Origin: a virus
Strand: one strand, 5' to 3'
IMG/VR virus record: IMGVR_UViG_3300031973_001557
Coordinates: 8,416-72,415 of that record
DNA: 64,000 bases
The notes beneath the pieces are model-generated. The model saw nothing but the letters and a program-made list of their open reading frames with translations. It did not search any database and had not been told where the DNA came from. Below are positions 43,787 through 60,194 of the stretch, one piece after another (the first letter of the stretch is position 1; the number at the start of each line of letters is the position of its first letter). Made by a program: the position numbers and the translations under genes.

Positions 43787-44744
43787 ACCATTTTATAAAC
43801 CATTTGAATATGGTGATATAACAAACCCTTTAATAGATGCAATGTGGGCATCACACTGGACAGTTAATGAATTTAATTTTACAAAAGATATACAAGACTT
43901 CAATACTAATTTAACTGAAAAAGAAAGACAGGTAGTCAAGCGTGCATTATTAATGATTTCTCAAGTAGAAGTATCAGTTAAAAGTTATTGGTCTAATGTT
44001 GGAAAACTTATACCTAAGCCAGAAATCTCAGAAATGGGATCAGTATTTGGTGGAGTAGAAGTTATACATTCAAGAGCTTATTCGGAAATTTTAACTAAGT
44101 TAGGATTAAACGACGAGTTTAGTACTTTGTTAGATACAGAAATTGTACAAAATAGAGTTAAGTATTTAACAAAATATAATGAAAAAAATTATGTAGATGA
44201 TAGAAAAAATATCTATTATTCGTTAGCGTTATTTTCTTTATTTACTGAAAATGTATCTTTATTTTCTCAGTTTTATACTATTTTAGGATTTAACAGATAT
44301 TATAATGTATTAAAAGATACTGCAAATGTTGTACAATATACATCAAAAGAAGAAAACTTACATGCAGCAGGTGGTATCGCTATACTCAATAAAATTAAAG
44401 AAGAATATCCTGAAGTAGTTGATTATGCTATGGAGCTTAAAATATATGAAGAAGCTAAAGAAGCATATGATGCTGAATTAAGACTTATTGAATGGATATT
44501 AGATGGGTATGAAAATGAATTCTTATCTTATGATATATTAAAAACATATTTAGGAATTAGAATGAATGACTCATTAGAAAAGATAGGATTTGATAAAATG
44601 TTTGATGTAGATGAGAATCTAGCTGAAAAAACGTTATGGATGGAAGAGGAAATATATGTTCCTGCCTTAACAGATTTCTTTCATAAGAAACCTATTGATT
44701 ATCAAAAAGCTATGAAAAGCTTTGATGCAGGTGAATTATTTTAA
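43767..44744 (+). CDS. nrdB: ribonucleotide reductase class I beta subunit
   Basis: EVIHSRAYS, FTENVSLFSQF, KEENLH, DFFHKKPIDY di-iron ligand pattern. Confidence 0.93.
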   Translation: MGIFQPRPFYKPFEYGDITNPLIDAMWASHWTVNEFNFTKDIQDFNTNLTEKERQVVKRALLMISQVEVSVKSYWSNVGKLIPKPEISEMGSVFGGVEVIHSRAYSEILTKLGLNDEFSTLLDTEIVQNRVKYLTKYNEKNYVDDRKNIYYSLALFSLFTENVSLFSQFYTILGFNRYYNVLKDTANVVQYTSKEENLHAAGGIAILNKIKEEYPEVVDYAMELKIYEEAKEAYDAELRLIEWILDGYENEFLSYDILKTYLGIRMNDSLEKIGFDKMFDVDENLAEKTLWMEEEIYVPALTDFFHKKPIDYQKAMKSFDAGELF

Positions 44745-44760
44745 TTTGTAAAACGTAGGA

Positions 44761-46398
44761 ATGTATTGGTTAAATAAACAGTCTAGGACTTTCTTGGAAA
44801 GAGACTATCTTCTTCCAGGTGTAACAGCAGAGCAAAGAATTAAAGAAATCTGCGATCGAGCAGAAAAAATATTAGGTATAAAAGGATTTTCGGATAAGTT
44901 TCATTCTTATGTTGAGAAAGGATGGTATAGTTTTTCATCACCAGTTTGGTCCAACTTTGGACTAGATAGAGGATTACCTATATCATGCTTTGGAATTGAT
45001 ATTCAGGATGATATTATGGATATCTTACGAGCATCATCTGAAATAGGTGCTATGACGAGATATGGAGGAGGAACAGCAGGCTTTTTCGGTAAGATAAGAC
45101 CAAGAGGATCTGAGATTAAAAATAATGGTAAGACATCAGGGGCAGTTCACTTTATGGAATTATTCCAAACTATTACTCAAGTTGTATCTCAAGGCAGAAT
45201 GAGAAGAGGATTCTTTGCAGCATACATGCCTATTGATCATGGAGATATAGAAGAGTTTTTAAATTGTCATACTGAAGGACATCCAATCCAAGATTTAGCT
45301 TTTGCAGTAACTATTCCGGAAGGATGGATGCAATCTATGATTGATGGTGATAAAAATAAAAGAAAATTATGGGCTAAAGTTTTACAAAGAAGAGCAGAAA
45401 AAGGATACCCATATATTTTCTTTGATGATAATGTAAATAATAATTTACCCCAAGCGTACGAAGATAAAGGATTAAAAATTAATCATTCTCAGATGTGTTC
45501 AGAAATAATTGAATATACAGATGAAGAAAAATCTTTTGTATGTTGCTTATCTTCTTTAAATTTATTGCATTACGATGATTGGAAAGATACTGATGCAGTA
45601 GAGATGTTAACTTATTTCTTAGATGCTGTTTATACAGAATTTATTGATAAGACAGAAGGAATTCCATTTATGGAAAAAGCTCGTAAGTTTGCAATCGAGC
45701 ATCGAAGTATTGGAGTAGGAGTATTAGGGTGGCATTCATACCTACAATCTATTATGATACCGTTTGAAAGTATGGAAGCTAAGCTACTTAATACGCAGAT
45801 CTTTAAATTAATTGATGAAAGAACTTTAAAGGCATCAAAAGAGTTAGCTAAACTATATGGAGAACCTAAAATGTTAGAAGGATACGGAGAAAGATTTACT
45901 ACAAGAGTAGCTCCCGCTCCTACAACTTCTTCTTCATTTATTTTAGGACAAGTATCTCCATCTATAGAACCTTTGTTCTCTAATTACTTTGTTAAGGATC
46001 TAGCTAAAGGTAAATTTACTTATAAGAACCCTTATCTACAAAAGCTATTAAAGGATAAAGGAATGAATTCAAGTGAGGTTTGGAGGTCAATTATGTCAAA
46101 AGGAGGTTCGGTACAACACTTGGATTTCTTAACTGAAAGAGAAAAATTTGTATTTAAAACTTTTGGAGAAATTACCCCATTAGAGATTATTCAACAGGCA
46201 GCAGGAAGACAGAAATATATTGATCAATCACAATCTTTGAACTTAGTTATCCATCCAGATGCAAGTCTAAAAGATGTAAATGCATTATATATTGAAGCTT
46301 GGAAATTAGGATTAAAAACTCTATATTATCAAAGGTCTTCTAATCTAGCACAAGAAACTTCACGGAATATTATGGATTGTGCTAGTTGCCAAGCATAA
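44761..46398 (+). CDS. nrdA: ribonucleotide reductase class I alpha subunit (no ATP cone)
   Basis: SSPVWSN, LPISCF, GGGT, QG..RRG, MCSEI, VCCLSSLN, APTTSSS, DQSQSLN, KTLYY, C-terminal CASC. Confidence 0.93.
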   Translation: MYWLNKQSRTFLERDYLLPGVTAEQRIKEICDRAEKILGIKGFSDKFHSYVEKGWYSFSSPVWSNFGLDRGLPISCFGIDIQDDIMDILRASSEIGAMTRYGGGTAGFFGKIRPRGSEIKNNGKTSGAVHFMELFQTITQVVSQGRMRRGFFAAYMPIDHGDIEEFLNCHTEGHPIQDLAFAVTIPEGWMQSMIDGDKNKRKLWAKVLQRRAEKGYPYIFFDDNVNNNLPQAYEDKGLKINHSQMCSEIIEYTDEEKSFVCCLSSLNLLHYDDWKDTDAVEMLTYFLDAVYTEFIDKTEGIPFMEKARKFAIEHRSIGVGVLGWHSYLQSIMIPFESMEAKLLNTQIFKLIDERTLKASKELAKLYGEPKMLEGYGERFTTRVAPAPTTSSSFILGQVSPSIEPLFSNYFVKDLAKGKFTYKNPYLQKLLKDKGMNSSEVWRSIMSKGGSVQHLDFLTEREKFVFKTFGEITPLEIIQQAAGRQKYIDQSQSLNLVIHPDASLKDVNALYIEAWKLGLKTLYYQRSSNLAQETSRNIMDCASCQA

Positions 46399-46406
46399 AC
46401 AATAGT

Positions 46407-47489
46407 ATGAGAAAATTATTTAACTTTTTAGGAAAAGCTATCTTTCCTACTCTGATTGCAGTAACCGCTTTAGCCATTTCAGGTTCAGCGGCTACTTTTT
46501 CAGTAATTGGATTATCAAAATTATTTGCTGGAGCTTCATTAGCTGTTATTATAATGACAGGAACTTTAGAAGCATCTAAATTAGTAGTAGCATCATTACT
46601 ACATCAATATTGGTCTGACTTAAATAGATTACTTAAAATATATTTAACTTTAGCAGTTGTAATACTAATTATCATTACTTCAATGGGTATTTATGGTTAT
46701 TTATCTGCTGCATATCAAGAAACAGCTAATAAAGAAGGTATCACTCAAAAAGAGTTAGCTATATATGATTCTAAGATAGAGAATTATAAAAAACAAAAAT
46801 CTTCAAGAGAACAAACAGCTAATTCCGTTCAAGAAAGAATCACTCAACTAAACGAAGGCATTAATAATATTGAATATAGTTGGGTAGATAGAGATGGAGC
46901 AGGAGATCAAAGAGAATTATTATCTACTCAATTAGAAATAGCTAATAAGGAATATCTAAGAGTTAGTAATGATATTTCAAAATTAGATTCTACTATTTTA
47001 GCATTAGAGAATGAAAGATTTGAAACTGAAATTAGCTCTGATGTAGCAGCCGAATTAGGACCTTTAAAATATATTAGTAAAATCTCAGGATGGGAGATGG
47101 ATAAGACAGTTAATGTTCTTATCTTAATTATTGTATTTGTATTTGATCCTTTAGCTATATGTTTGGTACTTGCAGCTAATTTTGCGTTCGGAAAGGCATT
47201 TCCAAAAAAAAGAGAAAATATTTACGGTGAAAAGGTAGTTATAACTCAAACACCTATAGTTGAATTAGAAGCTGAACCAGAGGATCTTCCAGATTTACAA
47301 GAAAATAAATTTAATCCTGAAAGAGAAAAAATTGAAAAAGAAATAGAAGAAATAGAAAATGAACAAATTAAATTAGCGCAAAGCACGGCATCAGGTCGAG
47401 CTATTCACGCAGCTAGTGAAGAATTAAAAGAAAGGAAAAAAATTTTAAAAAAACAATTAAATAATGATGATAATAGTATTACTTATTAA
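46407..47489 (+). CDS. multi-pass membrane protein with coiled coil
   Basis: Three N-terminal TM segments (FSVIGL, LEASKLV, TSMGIYGYLS), coiled coil, then IIVFVFDPLAI TM. ATG at 46407 is preferred over the TTG at 46386. Confidence 0.65.
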   Translation: MRKLFNFLGKAIFPTLIAVTALAISGSAATFSVIGLSKLFAGASLAVIIMTGTLEASKLVVASLLHQYWSDLNRLLKIYLTLAVVILIIITSMGIYGYLSAAYQETANKEGITQKELAIYDSKIENYKKQKSSREQTANSVQERITQLNEGINNIEYSWVDRDGAGDQRELLSTQLEIANKEYLRVSNDISKLDSTILALENERFETEISSDVAAELGPLKYISKISGWEMDKTVNVLILIIVFVFDPLAICLVLAANFAFGKAFPKKRENIYGEKVVITQTPIVELEAEPEDLPDLQENKFNPEREKIEKEIEEIENEQIKLAQSTASGRAIHAASEELKERKKILKKQLNNDDNSITY

Positions 47490-47495
47490 CTATTT

Positions 47496-47507
47496 TTCGT
47501 ATATTTA
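47496..47507 (+). promoter_or_regulatory. putative early/middle promoter TTCGTATATTTA heading the que cluster
   Basis: Intergenic copy of the TTCGTA-T-n-TTTA motif. Confidence 0.6.
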
Positions 47508-47519
47508 ATTAAAATAGTT

Positions 47520-47975
47520 ATGAGACATATTTACGATAGAGAAGTTATAGAAAAGAATCTAAAAAGATTAAAACCATTAAATTATAATAGATTTATGTGG
47601 TGGCGTAGTCATACTAGAAAGAATAAGCTTCTAAGTAATTATGCACCTCTTATTCAAAGAATTAAGAATGGTGATTACGATCACAGTATTTACTTCTGGC
47701 AAGCTCAATTAGCTACTCTTAATTATAATGAAAGATATCAAGCTAATATTGGTAGTGGTCAAGGAGATGATAAACTAAGCTTAATGGCTGAACGTTGTAA
47801 GAGATTATGGGAAGACTTTGAGAAAGATGAAGCAAAACTATTAGTTGAGATACGTAAGGAGTTTTGTAAACTATTTAGAATAAGTATTAAAGCTTATGAA
47901 AGAGTAATGGATGAGTTTGATGGTACTTTAGAAGACCTTTACTATTATTGTGAAAAAAAATATAAGAATGACTAA
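47520..47975 (+). CDS. hypothetical protein
   Basis: 151-aa ORF (YNRFMWWR, RIKNGDYD) after a TTCGTATATTTA element. Confidence 0.6.
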   Translation: MRHIYDREVIEKNLKRLKPLNYNRFMWWRSHTRKNKLLSNYAPLIQRIKNGDYDHSIYFWQAQLATLNYNERYQANIGSGQGDDKLSLMAERCKRLWEDFEKDEAKLLVEIRKEFCKLFRISIKAYERVMDEFDGTLEDLYYYCEKKYKND

Positions 47976-48165
47976 ATTAGGTATAAATAAAGGTCCACAT
48001 AGAGAAGATAGAGTCTTACAGAATACATATTTCGAAGAAGAATTAAATATATTATTTTCTAGAATAAGAGATAATGGAGTTAATTTAACGAAAAATGATA
48101 TGAAGTATTTAGAATATTTAGGTAATAAAACAGTTAATGATAATTTAAAACAAGAAAATGAGTAA
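47950..48165 (+). CDS. hypothetical small protein
   Basis: Fills the gap before queC and overlaps it; the ATG at about 47968 is the likelier start. Confidence 0.45.
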   Translation: MKKNIRMTKLGINKGPHREDRVLQNTYFEEELNILFSRIRDNGVNLTKNDMKYLEYLGNKTVNDNLKQENE

Positions 48166-48970
48166 AAATGTTGTAATTAGTCTTTCTGGAGGGATGGACT
48201 CCTCTACTTTATTAATCCATGCTTTAAAAGAAGGATTTAATGTAACTGCAGTATCTTTTGATTACGGTCAAAAGCATCGTGTAGAACTTGAAAGAGCTCA
48301 GTCTTTAATTGATTATATTAATCTAACCAGATTGAATGAACCAAACATCAAGTATCAAGTAATTAAATTAGATGGTCTTCCAGATCTACTTAACTCAGCT
48401 CTAGTATCAGGAGGAGAAGAAGTACCGGAAGGACATTATGCAGAAGAAAATATGAAAGCTACGGTAGTACCTAATCGTAATAAAATCTTTTCTTCTATAA
48501 CTCAAGCTATTGCTCTCTCAATGTATAAAGCAAATAATCTACCAACTTATATTGGAATGGGTATTCATGCAGGTGATCACGCAATTTATCCCGACTGTAG
48601 AGAAGAATTTAGAGATGCAGATCTAGCTACTTTTAAATTAGGAAACTGGGATGCTGATAATATCGAATATTATACTCCGTTTATTAATGATGATAAGTAT
48701 GGTATTTTACAAGCAGGAGAAGTTGCTTGTTTTGAATTAGGATTAGATTTTAATGAAGTATATTCTCGAACGAATACTTCATATAAACCTATTCAAATAG
48801 ATAAAGAATGGTATTCTGATTATAAATCAGCTTCTTCTGTAGAACGTATCGAAGCATTTATTAAGTTAGGAAAAAAAGATCCTGTAAGATATGCTGACGA
48901 AACAGGAGTAGTACATTGGCAGAAAGCTAAAGCTCACGTACAAGAAGTATTATTAAATTATAATACATAA
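48158..48970 (+). CDS. queC: 7-cyano-7-deazaguanine synthase
   Basis: SLSGGMDSST PP-loop, FDYGQKH..EL, TVVPNRN, YPDCR. Confidence 0.93.
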   Translation: MSKNVVISLSGGMDSSTLLIHALKEGFNVTAVSFDYGQKHRVELERAQSLIDYINLTRLNEPNIKYQVIKLDGLPDLLNSALVSGGEEVPEGHYAEENMKATVVPNRNKIFSSITQAIALSMYKANNLPTYIGMGIHAGDHAIYPDCREEFRDADLATFKLGNWDADNIEYYTPFINDDKYGILQAGEVACFELGLDFNEVYSRTNTSYKPIQIDKEWYSDYKSASSVERIEAFIKLGKKDPVRYADETGVVHWQKAKAHVQEVLLNYNT

Positions 48971-48975
48971 TATTA

Positions 48976-49119
48976 ATGAAAGAATTTATATATCATATGC
49001 TAGGATTATGCGGGGAATCACATCCTTCCTTACTATCTTTACTTATGATAGGGATTACTCCATTTATTTTTATGTATAAAAAAATAATAAATTATGTCAA
49101 AAAAATTTTTATCAAGTAA
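48976..49119 (+). CDS. 47-aa unannotated membrane peptide
   Basis: MKEFIYHMLGLCGESHPSLLSLLMIGITPFIFMYKKIINYVKKIFIK* fills the queC-queD gap. Confidence 0.55.
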   Translation: MKEFIYHMLGLCGESHPSLLSLLMIGITPFIFMYKKIINYVKKIFIK

Positions 49120-49564
49120 AATATATGATGGGTATTCTACTTGTTTTCGACAATGGAAAGCAACAGATACACACTGTCAATATTTACATGGATACTCAGT
49201 ATCTCTTAAAATAACATACGAAGGTGAACTCGATGATAAAAATTGGGTAGTAGATTTTGGCAGAGCTAAAAGATCCAATATAGAAATCGACGGTATGAAA
49301 GTAAAAGAATGGTTATCATATATGTTAGATCATACTGTAATAGTAGCAGAGGATGACCCATTTTTAGAAGCTTTTAAACAAATGGATAAAGTAGGAGCAG
49401 CTCGAGTAAGAGTTATTCCTGCTGTAGGAGCAGAAAAATTTGCTGAGTATTTTTATAATAAATTAAATGATTGGGTAAAAGAAGATACTAATAATCGATG
49501 TAAAATAGTATCAGTAGAAGTTAGAGAACACGAAAAAAATAGTGCAATATATTATGGAGAATAA
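49094..49564 (+). CDS. queD: 6-carboxy-5,6,7,8-tetrahydropterin synthase
   Basis: HCQYLHGY, WVVDFG, LDH, GAEKFAE, VREHEKN. Confidence 0.9.
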   Translation: MSKKFLSSKIYDGYSTCFRQWKATDTHCQYLHGYSVSLKITYEGELDDKNWVVDFGRAKRSNIEIDGMKVKEWLSYMLDHTVIVAEDDPFLEAFKQMDKVGAARVRVIPAVGAEKFAEYFYNKLNDWVKEDTNNRCKIVSVEVREHEKNSAIYYGE

Positions 49565-50372
49565 AATTAGAATAGCTCATGAAGCACCTATGTCAATATT
49601 TGATAAGGTACAACAGCTAACAGATTACGATTATTGTTTAGTTCATTTAATGGATGAAATTCCGGAATATAAAGAAATATTTTTTAAAGCTAAAAAACAA
49701 GGCAGAGAAATTATTTTAGATAATAGTATTTTTGAATTAGGTAAATCATTTAATAATAAAAAATATTATCATTGGGTAACTGAACTAGAACCAACATGGT
49801 ATATTATTCCAGATGTATTAGAAGATTGCGATAAAACGATTGATAAAGCAAAAAGATGGCTATCAAAATATCCTGATATTAAAAGTAAATCTATTGGTGT
49901 AGTTCAAGGTAAAACATATGAAGAAATAGTTAAATGTTATAAATTTATGGTGGAGGAAGCTAAGGTAGATAAAGTAGCTATTTCATTTGATTATTCATAT
50001 TATTTAAATACTTACGAAAGTTTAGGATCAAATAAATATGAAAGATTTACAATTGGTAGAGCATGCTTAATAGATCAAATGATCGAGGACAAAGTTATTG
50101 ACTATAGTATCCCAGTTCATCTATTAGGCTGCGGTTTACCACAAGAAGGAGCATTCTATAAAGAAGATCCTGAACGATACTTTTTTATAGATTCTGTAGA
50201 TACATCTAATCCTATAGTGCATGGTATAAAAAATGTACAATATACAAAATATGGATTAAAAGATAAAGAATCACAAAAATTATTTACTATGATAAATTAT
50301 AAATTAAATTCTCAAATATGGGATTTAATAGAATATAATACTAAAGCATTTAAAAATTTATGGAATGCATAA
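49554..50372 (+). CDS. dpdA: TGT-fold transglycosylase-like protein (DpdA-type, DpdA3-like)
   Basis: Ordered TGT-barrel motifs IILDNSIFE (DSG-like), IPDV, GVVQG, VHLLG, SVDTS; embedded in the que cluster. Confidence 0.7.
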   Translation: MENKIRIAHEAPMSIFDKVQQLTDYDYCLVHLMDEIPEYKEIFFKAKKQGREIILDNSIFELGKSFNNKKYYHWVTELEPTWYIIPDVLEDCDKTIDKAKRWLSKYPDIKSKSIGVVQGKTYEEIVKCYKFMVEEAKVDKVAISFDYSYYLNTYESLGSNKYERFTIGRACLIDQMIEDKVIDYSIPVHLLGCGLPQEGAFYKEDPERYFFIDSVDTSNPIVHGIKNVQYTKYGLKDKESQKLFTMINYKLNSQIWDLIEYNTKAFKNLWNA

Positions 50373-50916
50373 AAGATGGATCGCAATGTTCTCGCAAACT
50401 GGAAGCGAGCTTATAGAAGTAATTAATGCTCTAGATAGAGAACCTGATATTATTATAACTAATAAAAGACCTGAACATTTAAGAAGTATTAATCAAGATT
50501 TATTAGATAGATGCAGAAATAAAATTTGTTATGTATCTAACAAACCAACACTAGAAGAATATTATGGAATATTTGAACGATTTGTTTTTAATCCTATTGT
50601 TACTCTCCACGGCTGGTTAAGAGTATTGCCGCCGGAAATATGTAGGAGTTATGAAATTTATAATGGTCACCCAGGAGATATAATTAAATATCCAAAATTA
50701 AAAGGAAAGGATCCACAGTTAAAAGCTTGGAAAAAAAATTATAAATTTATAGGAACAGTATTGCATAAGGTAATTGAACAGGTAGATGAAGGAGAAATTA
50801 TAGCTTATAAAAATAAAATTCCTACTAGAAATTTGGAACTTGATGATTATTTTCGTATATTAAGAAACGAGTCGATAGGCTTATGGATACAATTTTTGAA
50901 TAAAAGGTTATACTAA
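50365..50916 (+). CDS. PurN-like formyltransferase (DpdN-like)
   Basis: MFSQTGSE, LHGWLRVLP, YNGHPG, GTVLHKV...VDEGEII formyltransferase motifs. Confidence 0.8.
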   Translation: MHKRWIAMFSQTGSELIEVINALDREPDIIITNKRPEHLRSINQDLLDRCRNKICYVSNKPTLEEYYGIFERFVFNPIVTLHGWLRVLPPEICRSYEIYNGHPGDIIKYPKLKGKDPQLKAWKKNYKFIGTVLHKVIEQVDEGEIIAYKNKIPTRNLELDDYFRILRNESIGLWIQFLNKRLY

Positions 50917-51470
50917 TGAAAATAGCATTTACAGGAGCTCAGGGAACGGGTAAATCTACTTTAGTTAATTATCTTGCAGATAATAATGTTAAAGAAATAG
51001 AAGAATATACTTTTGTAAAAGAAGTAACAAGAAGAATACAAAGACAATTTAATCTTGATATTAATGAGAAAGGAGATCTGACTACTCAGATACTAATTAT
51101 TACAGATCATATTGTAAATTTACGTAAACCAAAAGTAGTAATGGATAGATGTATTTTAGATGCATTAGTCTATACTCGATGGTTATGTGATTATAATCCT
51201 GGTATTCCTAACTGGGTTTATGATTATTGTGAAAATGTATTTAAAAGTTATATTAATCAATATGACATTATATTTTATTTAAAGCCTGAATTTGATCTGG
51301 TTAGTGATGGTGTGAGAAGTGATGATATAGACTTTAGAGATGATATAGCAGATTTATTTGAAACCTACATAAATAATTTTGGTGTAGAAGTTGTGGAATT
51401 AACAGGTACGGTAAAACAAAGAGTTAAACAAATTAAAAAAGCAATTAATGAGCACACAAAGTCAAATTAA
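50916..51470 (+). CDS. P-loop nucleotide kinase (NadR/Ttd14 AAA_28-like)
   Basis: KIAFTGAQGTGKST, MDRCILD, YDIIFY, DGVR. Confidence 0.8.
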   Translation: MKIAFTGAQGTGKSTLVNYLADNNVKEIEEYTFVKEVTRRIQRQFNLDINEKGDLTTQILIITDHIVNLRKPKVVMDRCILDALVYTRWLCDYNPGIPNWVYDYCENVFKSYINQYDIIFYLKPEFDLVSDGVRSDDIDFRDDIADLFETYINNFGVEVVELTGTVKQRVKQIKKAINEHTKSN

Positions 51471-52365
51471 TGATATAGCGGGAACGCTATTAGGTAAAAG
51501 AGGAGGAGAAGGTTATTCAACAACTTATGATTCTTCTTTATTAGTTCGTATTCCTAGATCTTTAAATCGAGAAACTTATCGAATTGATAATAAAAATCTT
51601 CCGTTTATAGGAGGAGATGTCTGGAACGCATACGAAGTATCAGCTATTACTAATACTGGAAGACCAGTATCAGGAGTAATGAAGATATGGTGTGATGCAG
51701 ATTCTAAATATCACGTTGAATCTAAGTCAATTAAACTATATCTTAATTCCTTTAATATGACTCCTTTTGGGGAAACAGGAGAAGAATGTATTAAGATTAT
51801 TGAGGATACCGTATCAGAAGATTTATCAACTTTATTAGAAACAGAAGTTGAATGTAAATTATTTACAAGAAATGATAGTCTTAATTTTGATGTCTTTAGT
51901 GATTATGATGAACTAGAAGATTTAGTAGATTTAGATAAAGTAGATTATTCTAATGATAAATTAGAAAAATTAGATATTACCAAAGCATCGTTTAAAGATT
52001 TTAATCCTAGATTAAAAGTTCGTACTAATCTTTTAAGAAGTAATTGTCGAGTAACTAATCAACCAGACTGGGGTGACTTATTTATTTTTATTAAAGGTAA
52101 TGAGAAGGATAGTGTATTTACTCTAGATAGTCTAGCAAGCTATATTGTTTCTCATAGACAAGTTAATCACTTTCATGAAGAGATCGTAGAAATGATCTTT
52201 AAAAAATTATACGATGAATTTAATCCTAAAGAACTAATGGTATGTGCAATGTATACTCGAAGAGGAGGGATTGATATTAATCCTATTCGATCTACTCATG
52301 AGCATTTAATTCCTGGTGCATTTAGAACTATGAATAGCTTAACTCAAAAAACATTACGTCAATAA
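51448..52365 (+). CDS. queF: NADPH-dependent preQ0 reductase, bimodular type
   Basis: WNAYE, VESKSIKLYLNSF QueF motif, SNCRVTNQPDWG (catalytic Cys/Asp), FHEE, YTRRGGIDINP. Confidence 0.93.
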   Translation: MSTQSQINDIAGTLLGKRGGEGYSTTYDSSLLVRIPRSLNRETYRIDNKNLPFIGGDVWNAYEVSAITNTGRPVSGVMKIWCDADSKYHVESKSIKLYLNSFNMTPFGETGEECIKIIEDTVSEDLSTLLETEVECKLFTRNDSLNFDVFSDYDELEDLVDLDKVDYSNDKLEKLDITKASFKDFNPRLKVRTNLLRSNCRVTNQPDWGDLFIFIKGNEKDSVFTLDSLASYIVSHRQVNHFHEEIVEMIFKKLYDEFNPKELMVCAMYTRRGGIDINPIRSTHEHLIPGAFRTMNSLTQKTLRQ

Positions 52366-53141
52366 TGAAATGTAAAAGATTAAGAAGTTACGAAAAACCT
52401 TTACAGGTATTAGAGCTTTATACTGCAGTTCAATCTGAAGGTTCAAGACAAGGTTACCCTACTATTGTAGTTAGAACATCAGGATGTACTCATAGATGCT
52501 TCTTTGGTGAAGGTGGATGGTGTGATAGTTGGTATACATCTATTCATCCGGAAAAAGGTACTTTCTGTTTTAATGACATTATCAAAATGTATGATGATAA
52601 TCCTCATATAAAAGAGATGATGTTAACTGGGGGATCTCCTACTATGCACCCTGCTTTAGTAAATGAATTAACTCATTTTGCTCATGAGCGAGGAATCTTT
52701 ATTACTATTGAAACAGAAGGATCTCATTTTTTAGAAACTGATTATCCTATTAATCTATTATCTATTTCACCTAAATTTAGTAATTCTATTCCAGTAGTAG
52801 GAGCTAAAACACCGCTAGGAGAGATAGTAGATGAGAAGATGATCATCAAACATAACAGTAAACGATTGAATAAAGAAGCAATCAAAGCTTCTATTGAATA
52901 TCATAATGATTATCATATTAAACCAGTATTAGATAAAGATTTAACTATTCTTCCGGAAGTAGAGGAGTTTGTTAAAGAGTTAGAGATACCAGATGAAAAG
53001 ATTTGGTGTATGCCTGCTGGAGATGATATTCCTGCTCTACAAGAATCCTATCCTGTAGTAATGAACTTTGTTAGAGATAGAGGATGGAGATTTACAGGTA
53101 GAAGTCATATTATGGCTTTTGGTACAGAAAGATGTGTTTAA
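52365..53141 (+). CDS. queE: 7-carboxy-7-deazaguanine synthase (radical SAM)
   Basis: ELYTAVQSEG...G, VRTSGC..RC...WCDS, LTGG.P, IETEG, ISPK. Confidence 0.88.
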   Translation: MKCKRLRSYEKPLQVLELYTAVQSEGSRQGYPTIVVRTSGCTHRCFFGEGGWCDSWYTSIHPEKGTFCFNDIIKMYDDNPHIKEMMLTGGSPTMHPALVNELTHFAHERGIFITIETEGSHFLETDYPINLLSISPKFSNSIPVVGAKTPLGEIVDEKMIIKHNSKRLNKEAIKASIEYHNDYHIKPVLDKDLTILPEVEEFVKELEIPDEKIWCMPAGDDIPALQESYPVVMNFVRDRGWRFTGRSHIMAFGTERCV

Positions 53142-53157
53142 TATTTAAAATAAAATT

Positions 53158-54183
53158 ATGCAAGATAACAGAAATAAGGAAAAAAAATATGAGTGGATCG
53201 GAGATGTTAAATCTTATAAGGAACCGGAAGATAATGAATATTCGGTAAAATATAATGAACCGGATAGAGAATATGATGCTACTTATAGACCTACAAAAGC
53301 TGATATCGAGACATTTCCTGATCTTCAAAATGGACCTTCATCTTTGATTCAAGGAAGTCCTGTAGAGATCCAACAAGTAGGTATTCATAATTTTAGATTA
53401 CCTCTTAAGTATGAAAAGCGTGGAGGAGGGGATATTGAATTAGAAACTCGAGTAACCGGAACAGTATCCTTAGCAGCTCATAAGAAAGGAATTAATATGT
53501 CTCGTATTATGAGATCTTTCTATAAGTTTAAAGATGATTACGTATATGATAAGTTAGATGATATTCTAATGAAGTATAAAGATAATCTAGATTCATTTGA
53601 TGCTAAGATTGGATTACATTTTTCTTATCCTATTTTACAACCTTCTTTAAGATCAAATAATGCTGGTTATCAATATTATAATGTAACTTTAGAAGGTAAT
53701 ATTGATTATACAGGTAATTTTAAAAAGATCTTACATTTTGATTTTGTTTATTCTTCTGCTTGTCCTTGTTCGTATGAATTAGCCGAGCATGCAAGAAAGT
53801 ATAGAAATAAAGCAACAGTATCTCATTCTCAAAGATCGGTAGCTAGAATATCAATAGAGTTTGATAAAATTGTATGGATAGAAGATCTACAAGAGATGTG
53901 TGCTAAAGCTCTTAAGACCGAAACTCAAGTAGTTGTAAAGAGAGAAGACGAAATGGCCTTTGCTGAACTTAATGGTTCTTATCTCAAATTTGTAGAAGAT
54001 GCCGCTCGATTATTATACGAACAATTATCCGAAGATAAAAGAGTAAAAGATTTTAGAGTAATATGCTCTCATCAAGAGTCTCTACACTCTCACGATGCAA
54101 TATCGGTTATAACAGCACCAAACAGCAAGTTTAGTCAAGATATATCACATGAGGTATGGTCCAGTTTAATTCATATTTCGTAA
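53158..54183 (+). CDS. folE2: GTP cyclohydrolase IB
   Basis: IQQVGI, KGINMSR, SACPCS, HSQRS, VKREDE, KFVEDAAR, ESLHSHDA. Confidence 0.92.
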   Translation: MQDNRNKEKKYEWIGDVKSYKEPEDNEYSVKYNEPDREYDATYRPTKADIETFPDLQNGPSSLIQGSPVEIQQVGIHNFRLPLKYEKRGGGDIELETRVTGTVSLAAHKKGINMSRIMRSFYKFKDDYVYDKLDDILMKYKDNLDSFDAKIGLHFSYPILQPSLRSNNAGYQYYNVTLEGNIDYTGNFKKILHFDFVYSSACPCSYELAEHARKYRNKATVSHSQRSVARISIEFDKIVWIEDLQEMCAKALKTETQVVVKREDEMAFAELNGSYLKFVEDAARLLYEQLSEDKRVKDFRVICSHQESLHSHDAISVITAPNSKFSQDISHEVWSSLIHIS

Positions 54184-54256
54184 AAAAGATTTATTAAAAA
54201 GGTAGAAAAGTCGAAGAAAAATCGCTATCTTAAGAATATAATTAGAATAAATATAT

Positions 54257-54757
54257 ATGCAATATAAATATAGTAGAAGAGATGATTATGTACCGTTTGT
54301 ATCCGAGGTAGAACAATTTAATGAAGCCTTTAATAAGCCTAACAAGTATATTCCTAATGTTCCCGAAAAAGAACAATGGATGTTTGTGTATAACTTTATC
54401 TTAGAGGAGTTAAATGAGTATAAAGAAGCATGCGAGAGAGGGGATGTAGTAGAGGTCTTAGATGCATTAGCCGATATTACTTATGTTGCAACCGGAAATG
54501 GTGTAATGCTACATGGTCTTAAAGATCATTTTGAAGCAGCTTATGAAGAAGTACATCAATCAAATATGTCTAAGTTGTGTAAGACTTTAGAGGAAGCCGA
54601 ACAGACGCGCGACCTGCGGTCCGAACAACAAGGTGAACCATGTCATATTGAACAAAGAGATGATTACTGGGTAGTATTAAGAAGTAGTGATCGTAAGGTC
54701 ATGAAGTCGGTTAACTATTTCCCACCAAATTTAAGCGCGATATTAAATGAGCAGTAA
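54257..54757 (+). CDS. all-alpha NTP pyrophosphohydrolase (MazG / PRA-PH-like)
   Basis: ILEELNEY...EVLDALADITYV, EVHQSNMSK, KVMKS..Y.PP.L. Confidence 0.85.
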   Translation: MQYKYSRRDDYVPFVSEVEQFNEAFNKPNKYIPNVPEKEQWMFVYNFILEELNEYKEACERGDVVEVLDALADITYVATGNGVMLHGLKDHFEAAYEEVHQSNMSKLCKTLEEAEQTRDLRSEQQGEPCHIEQRDDYWVVLRSSDRKVMKSVNYFPPNLSAILNEQ

Positions 54758-56468
54758 GGAGCAATTAGTACTACCTTACAAAAAGTGTTATGCAGAAAAA
54801 GGTAGAGGGAATAACTATACTATTCACTTATGGGATGATGGTGGATATAATCAATTAGATTGGCGTAATTATGCTTACAAAGAATCTGATTATGGTGAGT
54901 ATGAAGGTTTCCGAGGTGAGAAGTTAGATAAAGTGTATCAATGGGATTATGATGATAAGACTATTCATTATCATGATATGCAACCGGCTCAAAAGTTTCT
55001 GATCGAAACCTACGGTACTAATGATGAGCCTTCGACTTCACATAAAGAATTATTTTTCGATATTGAGATTGAGATTGGTGGACGATTAACTCAAGAGTAC
55101 ATCCGTCAAGCTCCAATGCCTTGTACTTCTATTGCTTGGTATGATAAGTTTAGAGATAAGTGGGGTATCTTGATTTTAGATAAGCAAGGTAAAATGCAAT
55201 ACTCTGAAAAGGGTAATAAAGAGATTATACCTGTTCGTACAGAAAAAGAGTTACTTGCTAAATGGGTTGAACGTATTAGAGAAATCGATCCAGATATCTT
55301 AATCGGATATAATAGTGATCATTTCGATATTCCTTATTTATATTTTCGTATCTGTAATGTATTAGGAGAGGAATGGGCTATGGCTATGTCTCCTATTAAT
55401 ATTGCAAGAGATATATCTCAATGGTCTAGAGAACGTACTATTGAGTTTGCCGGTTTAGAAACTTTAGATTACTTACGACTACATAAGCAGTTCTCTATGA
55501 GAGAAGAACCTTCTTATAAGTTAGATGCTATTGGAGAGAAGTATGCTGGGTTAGGTAAGATTGAGTATGAAGGATCTCTTAATCGATTATTCGAAGATGA
55601 TATTGATAAGTTTATCGAATATAACTTTCGAGATGTTGAGATCTTAAAAGTATTAGATGAGAAGTTAGGTTATCTTGATTTAACTAAAAACTTATGTCAT
55701 AAAGGTAAGATTAACTATCATCAGGTTCATTCTACCTCAGTAGTACATGATGGTGCTATTTCAGCTTATCTTTTATCTAAAGGTATTATTCCACCTCGTA
55801 AGGAACGTAATAATAAATTAGATCGTAAGATTGCTGGTGGTTATGTATTCTGTCCTACTTCCGGACTATACAATTATATTTTTGACTTAGATTTAACCTC
55901 TCTATATCCATCTATTATGATGACTCTCAATATGGGTAAGGAAACTATGATAGGAAAGATCTATCATGGTGATGAGAAGAATAACCGATTAGGGTTAAAA
56001 GATCTAAAAGAGATGCCTCAAGAGTTAAATGTTAGAGTTCAAAATCATAGAGGTCAAACTAAGATGATGGAAGTATCTAAACTGGTTAAGTTTATCGAAG
56101 ATATGGATATCGCAGTAGCTGCTAATGGGGTAATGTTCTCTAAAGATAAACCATCAGTATTCTCTATATTATTAAATGAATGGTTTAATGAGAGAGTACG
56201 ATATAAGAACTTAATGAAGAAGTATAAGTCTGAAGGTAACAAAGCTATGACTGCAAAGTATCATACAATGCAGTATACAATTAAGATCTTACTTAATTCT
56301 TTATTTGGAGCTACAGCTATGAATGGTTTTAGGTATGGTAATATACTTATAGGAGAAGCTATTACTTTATCTGGTCAACGTATCATTCAAGAATCAGCTT
56401 TACACATTAATCATACCTGTCACGATTTACTTTCTGGTAATATAGATAAAGAAGTTTTTACTAATTAA
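54747..56468 (+). CDS. family B DNA polymerase, N-terminal part (3'-5' exonuclease plus motifs A and B; no motif C)
   Basis: FFDIE, GYNSDHFDIPY, SYKLD, YNFRDV, GGYV, DLTSLYPS, KILLNSLFG, ITLSGQ; stop soon after, with no YGDTDS. Confidence 0.88.
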   Translation: MSSKEQLVLPYKKCYAEKGRGNNYTIHLWDDGGYNQLDWRNYAYKESDYGEYEGFRGEKLDKVYQWDYDDKTIHYHDMQPAQKFLIETYGTNDEPSTSHKELFFDIEIEIGGRLTQEYIRQAPMPCTSIAWYDKFRDKWGILILDKQGKMQYSEKGNKEIIPVRTEKELLAKWVERIREIDPDILIGYNSDHFDIPYLYFRICNVLGEEWAMAMSPINIARDISQWSRERTIEFAGLETLDYLRLHKQFSMREEPSYKLDAIGEKYAGLGKIEYEGSLNRLFEDDIDKFIEYNFRDVEILKVLDEKLGYLDLTKNLCHKGKINYHQVHSTSVVHDGAISAYLLSKGIIPPRKERNNKLDRKIAGGYVFCPTSGLYNYIFDLDLTSLYPSIMMTLNMGKETMIGKIYHGDEKNNRLGLKDLKEMPQELNVRVQNHRGQTKMMEVSKLVKFIEDMDIAVAANGVMFSKDKPSVFSILLNEWFNERVRYKNLMKKYKSEGNKAMTAKYHTMQYTIKILLNSLFGATAMNGFRYGNILIGEAITLSGQRIIQESALHINHTCHDLLSGNIDKEVFTN

Positions 56469-56472
56469 TCTA

Positions 56473-56483
56473 TATTTATAATA
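56473..56483 (+). promoter_or_regulatory. putative late promoter TATTTATAATA before the 926-aa ORF
   Basis: Exact copy immediately after the PolB stop codon. Confidence 0.7.
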
Positions 56484-56503
56484 ATAAAAAAATAAGAACA
56501 CTT

Positions 56504-59284
56504 ATGTCTAATTTTGACTTAAACGATTATTTGTATAATAATCCTCTATTCGAAGACGAAGATAAAAAAGCAGATAAAGAAATTGAAGATGTATTTAAGG
56601 ATGCAGTCGAAGATTTTGCAGACGAACTACCAAACATAAAAGCTGATGTTAAAGAAGGAGCACCTCTAGTTGTAGCAGGAGCTAGTTTAGCAATTCCGGA
56701 AATACTTAAAATTGTAGGAAAGATTTCTAAAAAATTCTCATCTGTAATTGGACGCACAGGAAATACAGGAGAAAAAATTATTAAAGTAGCTGATAAACTT
56801 CACCATACACTTACAGGAGTAATTAAAAAAGGACTTAGAGCAATCGGTGCTAAAGAAGGTTCAGCTCTTGATAAAGCAGTAGATGGTATCTATCATGTCT
56901 TAGTTGCATCATTAATGCTTGCAAGTGGAGCTGGATCTGTAAAAGCATTCAAAGCAGGAAAGATTGCAATATCTTCTTTAGAAGCAGCTCTAGCAGCAGT
57001 TAAGTCAAATGAAGTAGGAAGATTCTTACAAGACATAATTGGATCAGGAACAATAGGAGAAATAAACGAACAATTAGAATTTGATGATGATTTTGGTACT
57101 GGAGGTGAAGAAGTAGAAAGTTTAGCAGCAGATGTAGTAATGGGAAGAATAAGCTATAAAGATGCTAGAAAAAAAGCTTCTAAAGCTGCATTTAGTATGA
57201 AAGAACTTAATAATGCTATTGCGTATGTTGAAGATTTAACTGGTAAATCAGCTCCTAACTATAGTATAGAAGATCAAGTGCCTATTCATCGTAAAGGTGA
57301 TAATGACTATGATGCTGATTTTGAACAAGATGATGAAAATGTAGGAATGGGATATGATGATGAAGGAAGACCATTAGGTGAAGGTGATGGATGGGGACGT
57401 TCTGATCAATTTGCTTTAGTATCATCTATGCATAGAGAATTAGGTAAACCATCTGAATTTCCTAGCCTTTCTGATCTTATAGATGCCGCTGAAAGTGCAA
57501 CTGATTTTTATATGGATGATTTTGAGAGCTATGAGGATGATAAGGAAGGTTTAGTCATGATGAACGCTCGTAGTTATGCAAGACAATTTTTTCCTAAAAT
57601 GTTTGACGCAATGAAAAAATTTGCTGAACCATTAGATGAAGGAATGCATACAAAAGATCCTCGACAAATAGAAGCAGAGAATGAATTGAGAGATCAAGCA
57701 ATGTTATATTATCTTCGAAAGATACGTAGTGGAGAAATTGATGTTCTACCTAAAAATCCATTACAAGCATATTTAGATATGCTAACACAAGATCAAATGG
57801 ATCATGATGCAGAAACTTTAAGAAGAGAATTAGGAGAAGGACAACGTGGAGATTCTGAACCAGGATATTCTTTTTCAGACCTTACAGATAGATTGGATTC
57901 AATTAAAATGGGCACAGGTAATAAGTATGTAATAGGTCGTTTTAATCAAGAAGATAAAGTAATAGTTAAAAATTCTCCAGAGTTAGGTGTAGGAACAGTT
58001 TACGGTGTATTCCCACATAGGATCGATGGGAAAACAGCTAATGAGATGGTTTATAATGTAGAATTTCCTAATGGTGAAGATGAATATTACTATGATTCAG
58101 AATTATCTTTTGCTTCAAAAAAAGAAAAAATGAATGAAAGACTTAACGTAGCTAGAGATGCTCTTAAAAGACTATATAACGAAGTAGGAGCTACAACATT
58201 TTCTCAAATGATTCTTGAATTAAGAGATGAGAATGTCTTAGATGAATTAGTAGAAGGAATGACATATCAATACTCAGGAATTATGAATGAAGGACTTACC
58301 ATTGGTGGTAAAAAAGTAAAAGCTATTCATACTCATGATTCAAATAATGTAGAAGATCATACTATTGAATATGAAGACGGAACAGAAGAACCTTATTTAA
58401 AACACTTACAAATGAAAGAAGCAAGAGATTATAGGATGACTTATCCTAGTTATAAAGTCGAAGAATTTAACGCTATAGGTGATATGGCACATAATGGTAT
58501 TTTAAATCTAATGTCATTTGCTGAACAACACAAACCAGAAGTAGTAGATAAAATTAAAGCTGTAGCAGAAGAAGTAATGAATCTTATCTATGATGACATG
58601 GAAGAGTTTGATACACAGCCTAGAATTAGTGTTAAAGAGAAAAAAGGTAAAGATCATGACGGTGATGGAGATATTGATTCTGATGATTATTTAATGGCAA
58701 GAGATAAAGCTATTAAGAAAGCTATGAAATCTGAAACTAAATCTGCTCCTAAAGGACATTACTTTACAAAGTCCGGAAATCTAGTAAAAGGTAGAATAAC
58801 TAAAGATGCAAGAGAAAGAGGTGCTACTATATCTGATCCATTAGATAAAAGAAGATCTAAAATACCTCCAGTAACTCAAGTTAGAGAGGAGGATGGAGAC
58901 CAAAGAGTATTTAAAGGAAAAGATTATAAAGTAACTTTAGATAAAGGTCGAAGATATACTATGAAAGGAGTACATCAAGCAACTTATAAAGAAAATCCTT
59001 CACTTTCAAAAGAAAGAGCTAAAGCAGTAGCTAGTAGAATTTATAAATCTATAACAGAAGAAACTGAAGAACCTACTGCTGGACAGATTAAAAGCTCTGG
59101 AGGTTCACTAGCATCAATTGCAGGGAAACTCGCTAAGGTAGCAAAGGATATGAAAGGTTTAGCAAAAGAATATAAAGTAGCTAAAGAAGCAGGAGATGAT
59201 AAGAAAGTTAAAGATCTTCTTGCAACCTTGAAAGTACTTACAGCTCATAAAAAGCAACTAGAAAAAGATCTAGATAACGCTTAA
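56504..59284 (+). CDS. large acidic mosaic protein, putative internal head polyprotein
   Basis: TATTTATAATA upstream; unrelated segments separated by [ILMV]-x-E junctions; DHDGDGDIDSDD EF-hand-like motif. Confidence 0.55.
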   Translation: MSNFDLNDYLYNNPLFEDEDKKADKEIEDVFKDAVEDFADELPNIKADVKEGAPLVVAGASLAIPEILKIVGKISKKFSSVIGRTGNTGEKIIKVADKLHHTLTGVIKKGLRAIGAKEGSALDKAVDGIYHVLVASLMLASGAGSVKAFKAGKIAISSLEAALAAVKSNEVGRFLQDIIGSGTIGEINEQLEFDDDFGTGGEEVESLAADVVMGRISYKDARKKASKAAFSMKELNNAIAYVEDLTGKSAPNYSIEDQVPIHRKGDNDYDADFEQDDENVGMGYDDEGRPLGEGDGWGRSDQFALVSSMHRELGKPSEFPSLSDLIDAAESATDFYMDDFESYEDDKEGLVMMNARSYARQFFPKMFDAMKKFAEPLDEGMHTKDPRQIEAENELRDQAMLYYLRKIRSGEIDVLPKNPLQAYLDMLTQDQMDHDAETLRRELGEGQRGDSEPGYSFSDLTDRLDSIKMGTGNKYVIGRFNQEDKVIVKNSPELGVGTVYGVFPHRIDGKTANEMVYNVEFPNGEDEYYYDSELSFASKKEKMNERLNVARDALKRLYNEVGATTFSQMILELRDENVLDELVEGMTYQYSGIMNEGLTIGGKKVKAIHTHDSNNVEDHTIEYEDGTEEPYLKHLQMKEARDYRMTYPSYKVEEFNAIGDMAHNGILNLMSFAEQHKPEVVDKIKAVAEEVMNLIYDDMEEFDTQPRISVKEKKGKDHDGDGDIDSDDYLMARDKAIKKAMKSETKSAPKGHYFTKSGNLVKGRITKDARERGATISDPLDKRRSKIPPVTQVREEDGDQRVFKGKDYKVTLDKGRRYTMKGVHQATYKENPSLSKERAKAVASRIYKSITEETEEPTAGQIKSSGGSLASIAGKLAKVAKDMKGLAKEYKVAKEAGDDKKVKDLLATLKVLTAHKKQLEKDLDNA

Positions 59285-59334
59285 ATAAGTTGGATATAAG
59301 AAATAATTTACTTATATTTAAGTAAATTAACGTT

Positions 59335-59766
59335 ATGAAAAAACTATTACTATTATTTACACTCTCGCTATCTCTAAGTGTGTCTCAAGCACAGTATCAA
59401 GATATGCCTATTGACTGCTTAGTAGAAGCAATTATTCAAGTTGAATCAAGAGGAGACTCTACTGCTACAGGTGATCGTGGATGGGCAATAGGAGTATTGC
59501 AGATATGGCCTATTATGGTTAGAGAAGTTAATCGTATCCAGGAAAAAAATGGAAGTGATGTTCGTTATGTTTATACCGATCGTCTTAGTGTAAAAAAATC
59601 TATTGAAATGTTCCATATCTGGAGAGAATATTATCATTCTGATTCAGATTGGGAGACAATAGCTCGTTGTTGGAATGGAGGTCCATCTGGTAGTAGTCAT
59701 CATCGAACTAAGTGTTACTGGAACAAAGTAAGAAAAGAACTTGATTTATTAGCTTATTACCACTAA
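59335..59766 (+). CDS. lysozyme-like / lytic transglycosylase with signal peptide
   Basis: MKKLLLLFTLSLSLSVSQA signal peptide; AIIQVESRG (catalytic Glu), GVLQI, WNGGP. Confidence 0.8.
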   Translation: MKKLLLLFTLSLSLSVSQAQYQDMPIDCLVEAIIQVESRGDSTATGDRGWAIGVLQIWPIMVREVNRIQEKNGSDVRYVYTDRLSVKKSIEMFHIWREYYHSDSDWETIARCWNGGPSGSSHHRTKCYWNKVRKELDLLAYYH

Positions 59767-59774
59767 ATTATATA

Positions 59775-60194
59775 ATGCGATTATTATTTTTATTATTATT
59801 TGCTCCGTTAGTAGCAATATCTCAATCACTAACAGGATATGATTTCTCATGTACAAAAATGGAGATCTTAGATCCAGTAAAATATTCGGATGAATATTAT
59901 GTTATAGAAGAGACGAGAGTTGTTGATCTCAAAATTTCTTTTTATCACGATCATATTGCAATCTATGATTATGTGAAACAAGTCAGTAATATCATGGATG
60001 TGACATTCGTGCGTCATGATTCTGAATCTCTGGTAGATATCTACACATTAGAATCACCTAATGAACCAGGAAGTGGAGTATTTGTTTTCTTTGATCAAGG
60101 TATGGTGAACTTTTGTATAGAATACATACCAGAATGGAACCGATACAAGAGTATTTATAGATTGAAAGATTTAACTTATATAGGACACAAATAA
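59775..60194 (+). CDS. hypothetical exported protein
   Basis: Signal peptide MRLLFLLLFAPLVAISQ (A/S-Q cleavage typical of Bacteroidota). Confidence 0.55.
   Translation: MRLLFLLLFAPLVAISQSLTGYDFSCTKMEILDPVKYSDEYYVIEETRVVDLKISFYHDHIAIYDYVKQVSNIMDVTFVRHDSESLVDIYTLESPNEPGSGVFVFFDQGMVNFCIEYIPEWNRYKSIYRLKDLTYIGHK

Follow-up and report, generated by a model that had tools for sequence, protein, structure and literature searches.

When a phage replaces the guanine of its DNA with a 7-deazaguanine, is the base exchanged in finished DNA, or is the altered nucleotide made first and then polymerized? The question is raised by a gene cluster at positions 48158-56468 of a 64,000-nucleotide stretch of viral DNA (here called the window). 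The window covers positions 8,416 to 72,415 of IMG/VR record IMGVR_UViG_3300031973_001557 and is the last 64 kb of that 72.4-kb record, which has a completeness of about 45%. The cluster is very probably a DNA-modification gene set of an already described kind, for formylated dPreQ1 (fdPreQ1). The gene set itself is thus known, and what is new in the window is the FolE2 gene, the neighboring gene for a family B DNA polymerase (PolB) and the compact order. As to timing, the chances are about even that this is a module in which guanine is exchanged on a free deoxynucleoside or deoxynucleotide, so that replacement is pre-replicative. The strongest single argument is a kinase-type neighbor of the base-exchange gene. 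It is constant, it can be displaced in place and it is not found in control phages that carry the DpdA1 or DpdA2 type of enzyme.

The original prediction named ten genes in one run on the + strand, and all ten are confirmed, with their coordinates. Families were assigned with Pfam, PHROGs and NCBIfam, the Pfam scan covering the 20 open reading frames (ORFs) of 43767-62175. In the list below, TGT stands for tRNA-guanine transglycosylase, and family matches are given with their E-value or bit score.

48158-48970, + strand: QueC-like preQ0 (7-cyano-7-deazaguanine) synthase (PF06508, 1.4e-37; phrog_1550, 1.3e-44)
49094-49564, + strand: QueD, 6-carboxytetrahydropterin synthase (PF01242, 7.8e-16; phrog_2389, 6e-42)
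49542-50372, + strand: predicted DpdA3-type minimal TGT-fold base-exchange enzyme of 276 amino acids (phrog_19058, 2.7e-52; likely start ATG at 49554)
50365-50916, + strand: predicted DpdN-type PurN-like formyltransferase (PF00551, 28.9 bits, cut-off 26.1)
50916-51470, + strand: AAA_28 (NadR RNK-like) P-loop nucleoside or nucleotide kinase (PF13521, 72.8 bits, cut-off 27)
51448-52365, + strand: bimodular QueF, preQ0 to preQ1 reductase (QueF_N, 1.4e-30; QueF, 5.6e-22; TIGR03138, 5e-72)
52365-53141, + strand: QueE, radical SAM 7-carboxy-7-deazaguanine synthase (phrog_2076, 2.9e-49)
53158-54183, + strand: FolE2, GTP cyclohydrolase IB (PF02649, 9.4e-70; NF010200, 270 bits, cut-off 215)
54257-54757, + strand: MazG-like all-alpha NTP pyrophosphohydrolase (PRA-PH, 42.1 bits, cut-off 21.3; phrog_671, 3e-31)
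54747-56468, + strand: family B DNA polymerase, N-terminal part (DNA_pol_B, 2.1e-25; exonuclease domain, 3.1e-17)

The junctions between these genes are overlaps of 1-23 nt or gaps of 16-123 nt. That the run is co-oriented is true but not special, since nearly all long ORFs of the window lie on the + strand.

The described kind is that of Flavobacterium phage immuto. Cui et al. (2023; PMC10516641) present DpdA3 as a new subfamily that includes the immuto DpdA, and their liquid chromatography-tandem mass spectrometry shows fdPreQ1 in place of all detectable deoxyguanosine (dG) in immuto. The same paper names the PurN-like gene adjoining DpdA3 in immuto DpdN and gives it a predicted function. 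On that account the original prediction was right about the literature, with a PurN-like DpdN and a divergent DpdA3 yielding formylated dPreQ1 in a Flavobacterium phage. The core order DpdA3-DpdN-kinase-QueF is identical in immuto and the window. Protein identities are 51.5% for DpdA3 and, by local tblastn, 51.7% for DpdN (YP_010114479.1; NC_055915 35039-35566), 34% for the kinase (immuto gp203), 69% for QueE, 62% for MazG (immuto gp208, which adjoins DpdA3 upstream), 55.8% for QueF and 57% for QueD. Both phages are large myoviruses of about 30% G+C (about 31% in the window). However, the two clusters are not the same. FolE2 stands in the window where immuto has FolE1, and the window genes are packed together in a single series that opens with QueC and QueD and closes with MazG. 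The next gene in the window is a partial PolB, whereas PolA is found in immuto. No phosphoribosyltransferase-like, Endonuclease_NS or GroES/GroEL neighbors were found in the 72-kb record. In addition, the DNA modification was measured in immuto, whereas the window phage comes from a metagenomic record.

The same arrangement can be followed beyond immuto. A relative of DpdA3 is encoded in 469 IMG/VR stretches, of which the best 80 were used, each with flanks of up to 10 kb. ORFs were called in these 80 loci and clustered, and the clusters were named with Pfam. The order DpdA3-DpdN-kinase-QueF is kept in immuto and in most of the 80 loci, and therefore the grouping of the cluster genes is not due to chance.

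How close is the base-exchange enzyme to known ones? When it was searched by tblastn against 50,697 phage records, matches were found in 20. Four are Flavobacterium immuto phages (51.5% identity over 97% of the length, with the immuto match annotated as DNA guanine transglycosylase DpdA), 14 are Campylobacter phages of the genus Firehammervirus (40-42%) and two are weak partial matches. The original prediction had left the gene starting at 49554 to be placed among the DpdA types. Its identity to the immuto DpdA and to the CP220 group (the 40-42% matches) places it with DpdA3, and the protein is accordingly predicted to be a transglycosylase of that subfamily. It has no Pfam or NCBIfam match at E <= 0.01, PF01702 included. 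The AlphaFold2 model (mean predicted local distance difference test, pLDDT, 90.5) suggests what the protein is. The 50 Foldseek matches listed, of at least 500 in the PDB, are all TGTs, with a best listed E-value of 5.4e-9, and VIA-align superposes the model on TGTs with Z 17.4-18.5 over 235-239 residues (root mean square deviation 2.9-3.3). The model thus points to a TIM-barrel TGT fold. A DpdA3 profile finds no TGT among the PDB sequences, and hhalign against the DpdA of phage 9g gives a probability of 0.2%, with no profile similarity. As far as the model tells, kinship to solved TGTs or to DpdA1 would be visible in the fold only and not in the sequence.

The C-terminal zinc site of TGTs has the motif CxCxxC...H. 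DpdA3 has no Cys/His cluster able to form such a site: the cysteines of the window protein are residues 32, 96, 132, 175 and 197 only, with none beyond 197, and in the family C132 is invariant and C197 nearly so. DpdA3 is therefore a stripped barrel, of about 265-276 amino acids. It is also widespread, with relatives in 3347 protein clusters at E <= 1e-5. Three metagenomic proteins of 531-568 amino acids (P0122, P0123 and P0124) are fusions of DpdA3 with bimodular QueF. They make up three of the four DpdA3 relatives among proteins of 484-2000 amino acids, the fourth having no Pfam domain in its extra part. These fusions suggest a direct handover of the free base from QueF to DpdA3, which is compatible with exchange either before or after replication. 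A DpdA3-kinase fusion was not seen among the 484-2000-amino-acid proteins; fusions of about 450 amino acids could be checked only in the best 120 near relatives.

The free base would come from the precursor genes. FolE or FolE2 together with QueD, QueE and QueC converts GTP to preQ0, and QueF reduces preQ0 to the free base preQ1. By sequence, the preQ1 pathway appears complete in the cluster, with a GTP cyclohydrolase I, QueD, QueE, QueC and QueF all present. Several of these enzymes are atypical, and QueC, QueD and QueE all show motif deviations. QueD has the motif CQYLHGY, where the usual one is CxxxHGH, and QueE has the cysteine pattern Cx3Cx7C (its identity to the QueE of phage phiST is 70.6%). 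The cyclohydrolase is exchangeable. In a relative of the window (locus L004, with flanking DNA about 91% identical), FolE2 is swapped for FolE1: window positions 53144-54234 have no counterpart, L004 carries FolE1 at the same place (13603-14340) and the two sequences match again from the beginning of MazG onward. Two GTP cyclohydrolases that are not homologous have thus been exchanged at one site. The same relative has an additional 81-amino-acid ORF at the position of the window's 123-nt QueC-QueD spacer.

DpdN is the component expected to add the formyl group. A profile built from 20 DpdN homologues finds glycinamide ribonucleotide (GAR) transformylases best (7e-15 and weaker), with sugar-nucleotide and tRNA formyltransferases far weaker, and DpdN aligns with PurN over nearly its full length. 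The catalytic Asn-His-Asp (N100, H102 and D141) is invariant in the 20 homologues and aligned to PurN. In PurN the SGxGSN loop binds the 5'-phosphate of GAR. The corresponding N-terminal loop of DpdN (SxxGS) is aligned to it, with S10, Q11, G13 and E15 invariant in the 20 sequences. The loop and the likeness to GAR transformylases may be taken as pointers to a small-molecule substrate. The two chemical structures, by inspection, also place the primary amine of a preQ1 nucleotide at a similar distance from C1' as in GAR. DpdN is present in 73 of the 82 DpdA3 loci.

What, then, is a kinase doing among these genes? The original prediction took it as a sign of a nucleotide-level route. In its P-loop, G7, G12, K13 and T15 are invariant. 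Its AlphaFold2 model (pLDDT 93.4) is closest to NadR ribosylnicotinamide kinase domains (Z 18.5 and 17.8), followed by dTMP kinases and by deoxyguanosine and deoxyadenosine kinases (Z 14-15). Judging from the model, the kinase may act on a deoxynucleoside as well as, or instead of, a deoxynucleoside monophosphate (dNMP). Its conservation was assessed in the 64 loci where 2.5 kb or more follows DpdA3, with 16 loci excluded, and a kinase was counted when it lay within 3 kb downstream. All 64 assessable loci, which represent 36 DpdA3 clusters at 90% identity, have a kinase-type gene there: 47 encode AAA_28 proteins, 15 encode DUF3310 proteins and two encode AAA_28-GNAT fusions. Each of the 15 DUF3310 genes takes the place of the kinase gene, between DpdN and QueF. 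That they are kinase-type proteins rests on a passage of one paper which links DUF3310 to the nucleotide kinase activity of gp1.7 (PMC10700055), on the annotation of phage T7 gp1.7 as a nucleotide kinase and on the Pfam match of DUF3310 to gp1.7 (81.5 bits, residues 122-184). The window, in contrast to these 15 loci, has the P-loop kinase in that slot. It has no DUF3310 gene; a weak tblastn match upstream of the window is not confirmed by the Pfam model.

In the two fusion loci, L022 (10331-11287) and L034 (6123-7079), the AAA_28-GNAT ORF overlaps the DpdA3 stop codon by 3 nt, and both loci lack DpdN. Thus the kinase is tied to an enzyme that would acylate the side chain. From their gene content, these loci may make an N-acetylated preQ1 variant.

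Five phages of the DpdA1/2 type (9g, NP1, R31B, RHEph06 and Flasso) served as controls. In none of them is a kinase annotated less than 6 kb from DpdA, and none has AAA_28 above cut-off or DUF3310 anywhere in the genome. Flasso has QueF yet neither kinase family. The positive controls for DUF3310 gave four of five (T7, two records with DUF3310 in the kinase slot, and immuto). It follows from these counts that a kinase belongs to DpdA3 modules as an integral and conserved component, and its presence in all assessable DpdA3 loci but not in the DpdA1/2 controls favors a nucleoside- or nucleotide-level step. To this extent the kinase does what the original prediction asked of it; however, it is NadR-like, and dNMP as its substrate is uncertain.

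A scheme can be drawn from these components. FolE2, QueD, QueE and QueC would take GTP to preQ0, and QueF would take preQ0 to the free base preQ1. DpdA3, judging by homology, would exchange guanine for the deazapurine on deoxyribose, and DpdN, likewise by homology, would formylate the aminomethyl group. As homology to immuto suggests, the packaged DNA would therefore carry fdPreQ1 for most or all dG. What if the exchange takes place on a free deoxynucleoside or deoxynucleotide? In this scenario dGTP would be depleted by the MazG-like enzyme, which would convert it to dGMP, and the NadR-like kinase would re-phosphorylate the modified product. Host kinases would complete the triphosphate for the phage polymerase to incorporate, and replacement would be pre-replicative. 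A fuller version of the idea is offered tentatively, at somewhat less than even chances. DpdA3 would not be a DNA transglycosylase but would exchange the base of a free deoxynucleoside or deoxynucleotide, putting preQ1 in place of guanine on dG or dGMP from the hydrolysis of dGTP by MazG or HD enzymes. The PurN-like enzyme would take the resulting nucleotide for a GAR look-alike and acylate its side chain, a dedicated kinase would follow, and the kinase-GNAT relatives without DpdN would make N-acetyl-preQ1 DNA.

Two further steps had been read into the cluster, removal of dGTP and incorporation by the adjacent polymerase. The MazG-like protein meets the family model and has the conserved acidic residues expected of metal ligands, with E50, E51, E54, E66, D69, D73 and E98 invariant in 12 sequences. 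It was sought within 3 kb upstream of DpdA3 in the 62 loci that have 2.5 kb or more of upstream DNA. The gene is frequent (42 of the 62) but not universal, and its sequence does not give its specificity.

The polymerase gene is present but its ORF is incomplete. DNA_pol_B covers only profile positions 24-202 of 453, and the match to phrog_262 covers positions 82-568 of 856. Motif A (DLTSLYPS, at residue 382) and motif B (KILLNSLFG) can be recognized and the ORF ends soon after, with no motif C ([YFVIL]xDTDS) in any of the six frames of the 72-kb record. The PHROG families to which the protein matches are those of half-length polymerases. Probably the polymerase is split, with its second half in the missing part of the genome. 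The 926-amino-acid ORF that follows (56504-59284) was considered as this second half and rejected, having neither a family nor polymerase motifs. PolB is not similar to the polymerase ORFs of phiST at E <= 0.01. As an argument for a nucleotide-level route the adjoining polymerase turned out to be uninformative. PolB is linked in only three of 82 related loci, with PolA following in 44, and ordinary DpdA1 phages, whose DNA is modified after replication, likewise place DpdA beside a clamp gene, followed by a polymerase in the four Queuovirinae-type ones.

Other modified phages provide a background for these results. Three DpdA3 phages have been measured and all show complete replacement of dG (Cui et al., 2023; PMC10516641). 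Besides immuto they are CP220 (dADG), whose DpdA3 is 40% identical to that of the window, and phiST (dDG), whose DpdA3 is 22.5% identical (E 2.8e-7). In CP220 the order is an HD plus P-loop protein (gp055), DpdA3 (gp056) and an AAA_28 kinase (gp057; 40.6% identical to the window kinase). In phiST a MazG/dUTPase-like gene, DpdL, the P-loop gene CGPG_00066 and DpdA3 stand in line, so that CGPG_00066 adjoins DpdA3 and the MazG/dUTPase-like gene is two genes away. CGPG_00066 matches AAA_18 just above the cut-off, a family different from that of the window kinase and one which presumably holds nucleotide-kinase-like P-loop proteins. It is called a protein of unknown function by Cui et al. (PMC10516641). 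These distant DpdA3 lineages thus show the pattern again, with DpdA3 flanked by a P-loop kinase and by a (d)NTP phosphohydrolase, the HD protein in CP220 and the MazG/dUTPase-like one in phiST. Unlike the window, CP220 and phiST end at CDG-derived bases and lack QueF and DpdN.

Systems with DpdA1 or DpdA2 (9g, other Queuovirinae and mycobacteriophages) resemble the window in having the same precursor pathway, an enzyme of the TGT superfamily and adjoining replication genes. However, their proteins are longer than DpdA3 (317 amino acids for 9g gp03, others longer still by annotated coordinates) and their modification is partial, at 0.1-30% of G (PMC10516641).

A parallel with Z-genomes had also been proposed. 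In the PurZ/MazZ/DatZ system of S-2L-type cyanophages the canonical dNTP is removed, the analogue is built as a nucleotide and a polymerase incorporates it. The proposed logic is analogous, but the likeness ends there, as the enzymes are not homologous. No PurZ/adenylosuccinate-synthetase family occurs among the 20 ORFs of the Pfam scan, and for the window MazG no similarity to a solved MazZ-type structure could be detected.

How well does a pre-replicative route stand against the published one? Cui et al. propose post-replicative insertion for DpdA3 (PMC10516641). On this account DpdA3 acts on replicated DNA, DpdN formylates there or on the free base, and the kinase and MazG are syntenic passengers that serve dNTP supply or NAD salvage. 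This is a serious possibility, if not a probable one. According to the same paper, DpdA1, DpdA2 and bacterial DpdA act on DNA, and attempts to demonstrate DpdA3 activity on DNA in E. coli failed. Known members of the TGT fold act on polynucleotides, and DpdA3 by its model shares that fold. Complete replacement is typical of pre-replicative routes in modified phage genomes, and this counts against insertion into finished DNA. In the same direction, the lack of the TGT zinc subdomain in DpdA3, taken together with the complete replacement in three phages, lends support to a pre-replicative route. The kinase can be argued both ways. Its nearest structures are ribosylnicotinamide kinase domains and QueF requires NADPH, so a passenger in NAD salvage is conceivable. 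Against a mere passenger stand its presence at every assessable locus, its displacement in the same slot by an unrelated domain linked with kinase activity, and its fusion to an acyltransferase where DpdN is missing; both kinase families are also absent from all five controls, the QueF-bearing Flasso included.

Several other observations weigh against the pre-replicative route. The MazG gene is missing in 20 of the 62 loci, and in all six of the DUF3310-type loci with both flanks, and therefore depletion of dGTP by MazG is not a universal step. MazG homologues are also widespread (463 phage records), and the window protein has weak PDB matches only (DR2231, E 0.03-0.08). The 92-amino-acid DUF3310 proteins share only the C-terminal domain of gp1.7 (pairwise E 0.009) and lack its N-terminal half; DUF3310 is common in phages, and immuto carries another outside its cluster. 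The 80 surveyed loci are 49-56% identical to the query, except L004 (95%), and are thus nearest relatives and not independent. A tblastn survey for the kinase missed the immuto kinase, which was found otherwise, and this makes the negatives of that survey weak. As to the supply of precursor, QueC scores 125.6 bits with TIGR00364, under the cut-off of 150.3, and a regular-expression search found no CxxCxxC motif in it.

Might the product be a different one? Another deazaguanine in this phage, such as plain dPreQ1 or dPreQ0, with the PurN-like protein inactive or acting on another substrate, is improbable. The atypical QueC and a PurN-like Pfam score barely above the cut-off would allow for it, and even in immuto the DpdN assignment is a prediction (PMC10516641). 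Nevertheless, DpdN sits at the same position as its immuto counterpart with half of its residues identical, its catalytic triad does not vary among the homologues, and most DpdA3 loci have it. Even less credence, indeed next to none, is due to a role in queuosine-type tRNA modification or host folate/pterin metabolism in place of DNA. The pathway enzymes are those of queuosine biosynthesis. However, the TGT-fold protein is of the DpdA3 type and not a bacterial TGT, given that PF01702 and the zinc motif are both missing, and the cluster lies in a replication module between ribonucleotide reductase and polymerase. The homologous immuto cluster also accompanies fully modified DNA (PMC10516641).

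The surroundings of the cluster agree with its place in such a module. PHROGs assignments in the window include terminase, portal, prohead protease, major head protein, tail sheath and tube, and the source phage is thus a myovirus. After the structural genes come those for a single-stranded DNA-binding protein, a UvsX-like recombinase, an exonuclease, a DnaB-like helicase and a two-subunit ribonucleotide reductase, so that the cluster sits in the replication and nucleotide-metabolism part of the genome.

43767-46398, + strand: ribonucleotide reductase small and large subunits, directly upstream context (PF00268, 1.1e-46; PF02867, 1.7e-97)

Two ORFs without known function (46386-47975) lie between the reductase and QueC. 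One, of 367 amino acids (46386-47489), matches only viral hypothetical clusters in an Atlas search; the other, of 151 amino acids, recurs at eight DpdA3 loci in varying positions. Behind the cluster, the 926-amino-acid ORF is rich in charged and low-complexity stretches and matches no Pfam, PHROGs or NCBIfam family. A megablast search with the 8.3-kb cluster brought up no near-identical sequence among the 50,697 phage records. Rfam gave no match at E <= 1 in 43000-60000, and so no riboswitch-like leader. The 123-nt QueC-QueD spacer folds no better than shuffled sequences (z -0.91). Promoter-like sites (80 against 75.8 expected) and terminator-like sites (three against 4.0 expected) were uninformative.

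The related loci fall into three arrangements. Type I, which is immuto-like, begins upstream with QueD and QueE, often Endonuclease_NS, a small phosphoribosyltransferase-like gene and FolE1, then MazG and a 66-amino-acid ORF, and continues with DpdA3, DpdN, kinase and QueF, followed by PolA, HSP20, GroES and GroEL. Type II has ThyX, QueD, a divergent QueE, FolE1, DpdA3, DpdN, DUF3310, QueF, QueC, a YhhQ-like transporter and a dCTP-deaminase-like gene, and lacks both the P-loop kinase and MazG. In these Type II loci (L005-L049) the DUF3310 protein has 92 amino acids (for example L024 7726-8004) and the transporter is Vut_1. Type III, which also lacks MazG, has FolE1, DpdA3, DpdN, kinase, QueF and QueC. 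A fourth, compact arrangement is that of the window, where FolE2 and PolB are present. The phosphoribosyltransferase-like gene encodes 131-133 amino acids and lies between QueE and FolE1 in 39 Type I loci (L027 6062-6463; L001 6840-7235); it was not found in the record of the window. Its product could salvage released guanine or ribosylate the deazapurine base.

What would a pre-replicative route mean? The published view assumes insertion into finished DNA and does not mention the kinase that is present at every assessable locus; the word 'kinase' is absent from the main text and one supplementary file of Cui et al. (PMC10516641). In the literature searched there was no paper with a biochemical test of DpdA3 or a discussion of the kinase. 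If the route proposed here is true, it would be the first pre-replicative pathway to a 7-deazapurine dNTP and the fourth independent way in which phages use the dNTP pool to replace a base entirely. DpdA3 would represent a new substrate class for a TGT-fold enzyme, and the N-acetyl-preQ1 DNA of the kinase-GNAT relatives would be a modification not yet described. With DpdA3, the kinase and DpdN, 7-deaza-dGTP analogues of use in sequencing and synthetic biology could be made enzymatically. With a family of 3347 protein clusters, the answer bears on many aquatic phages.

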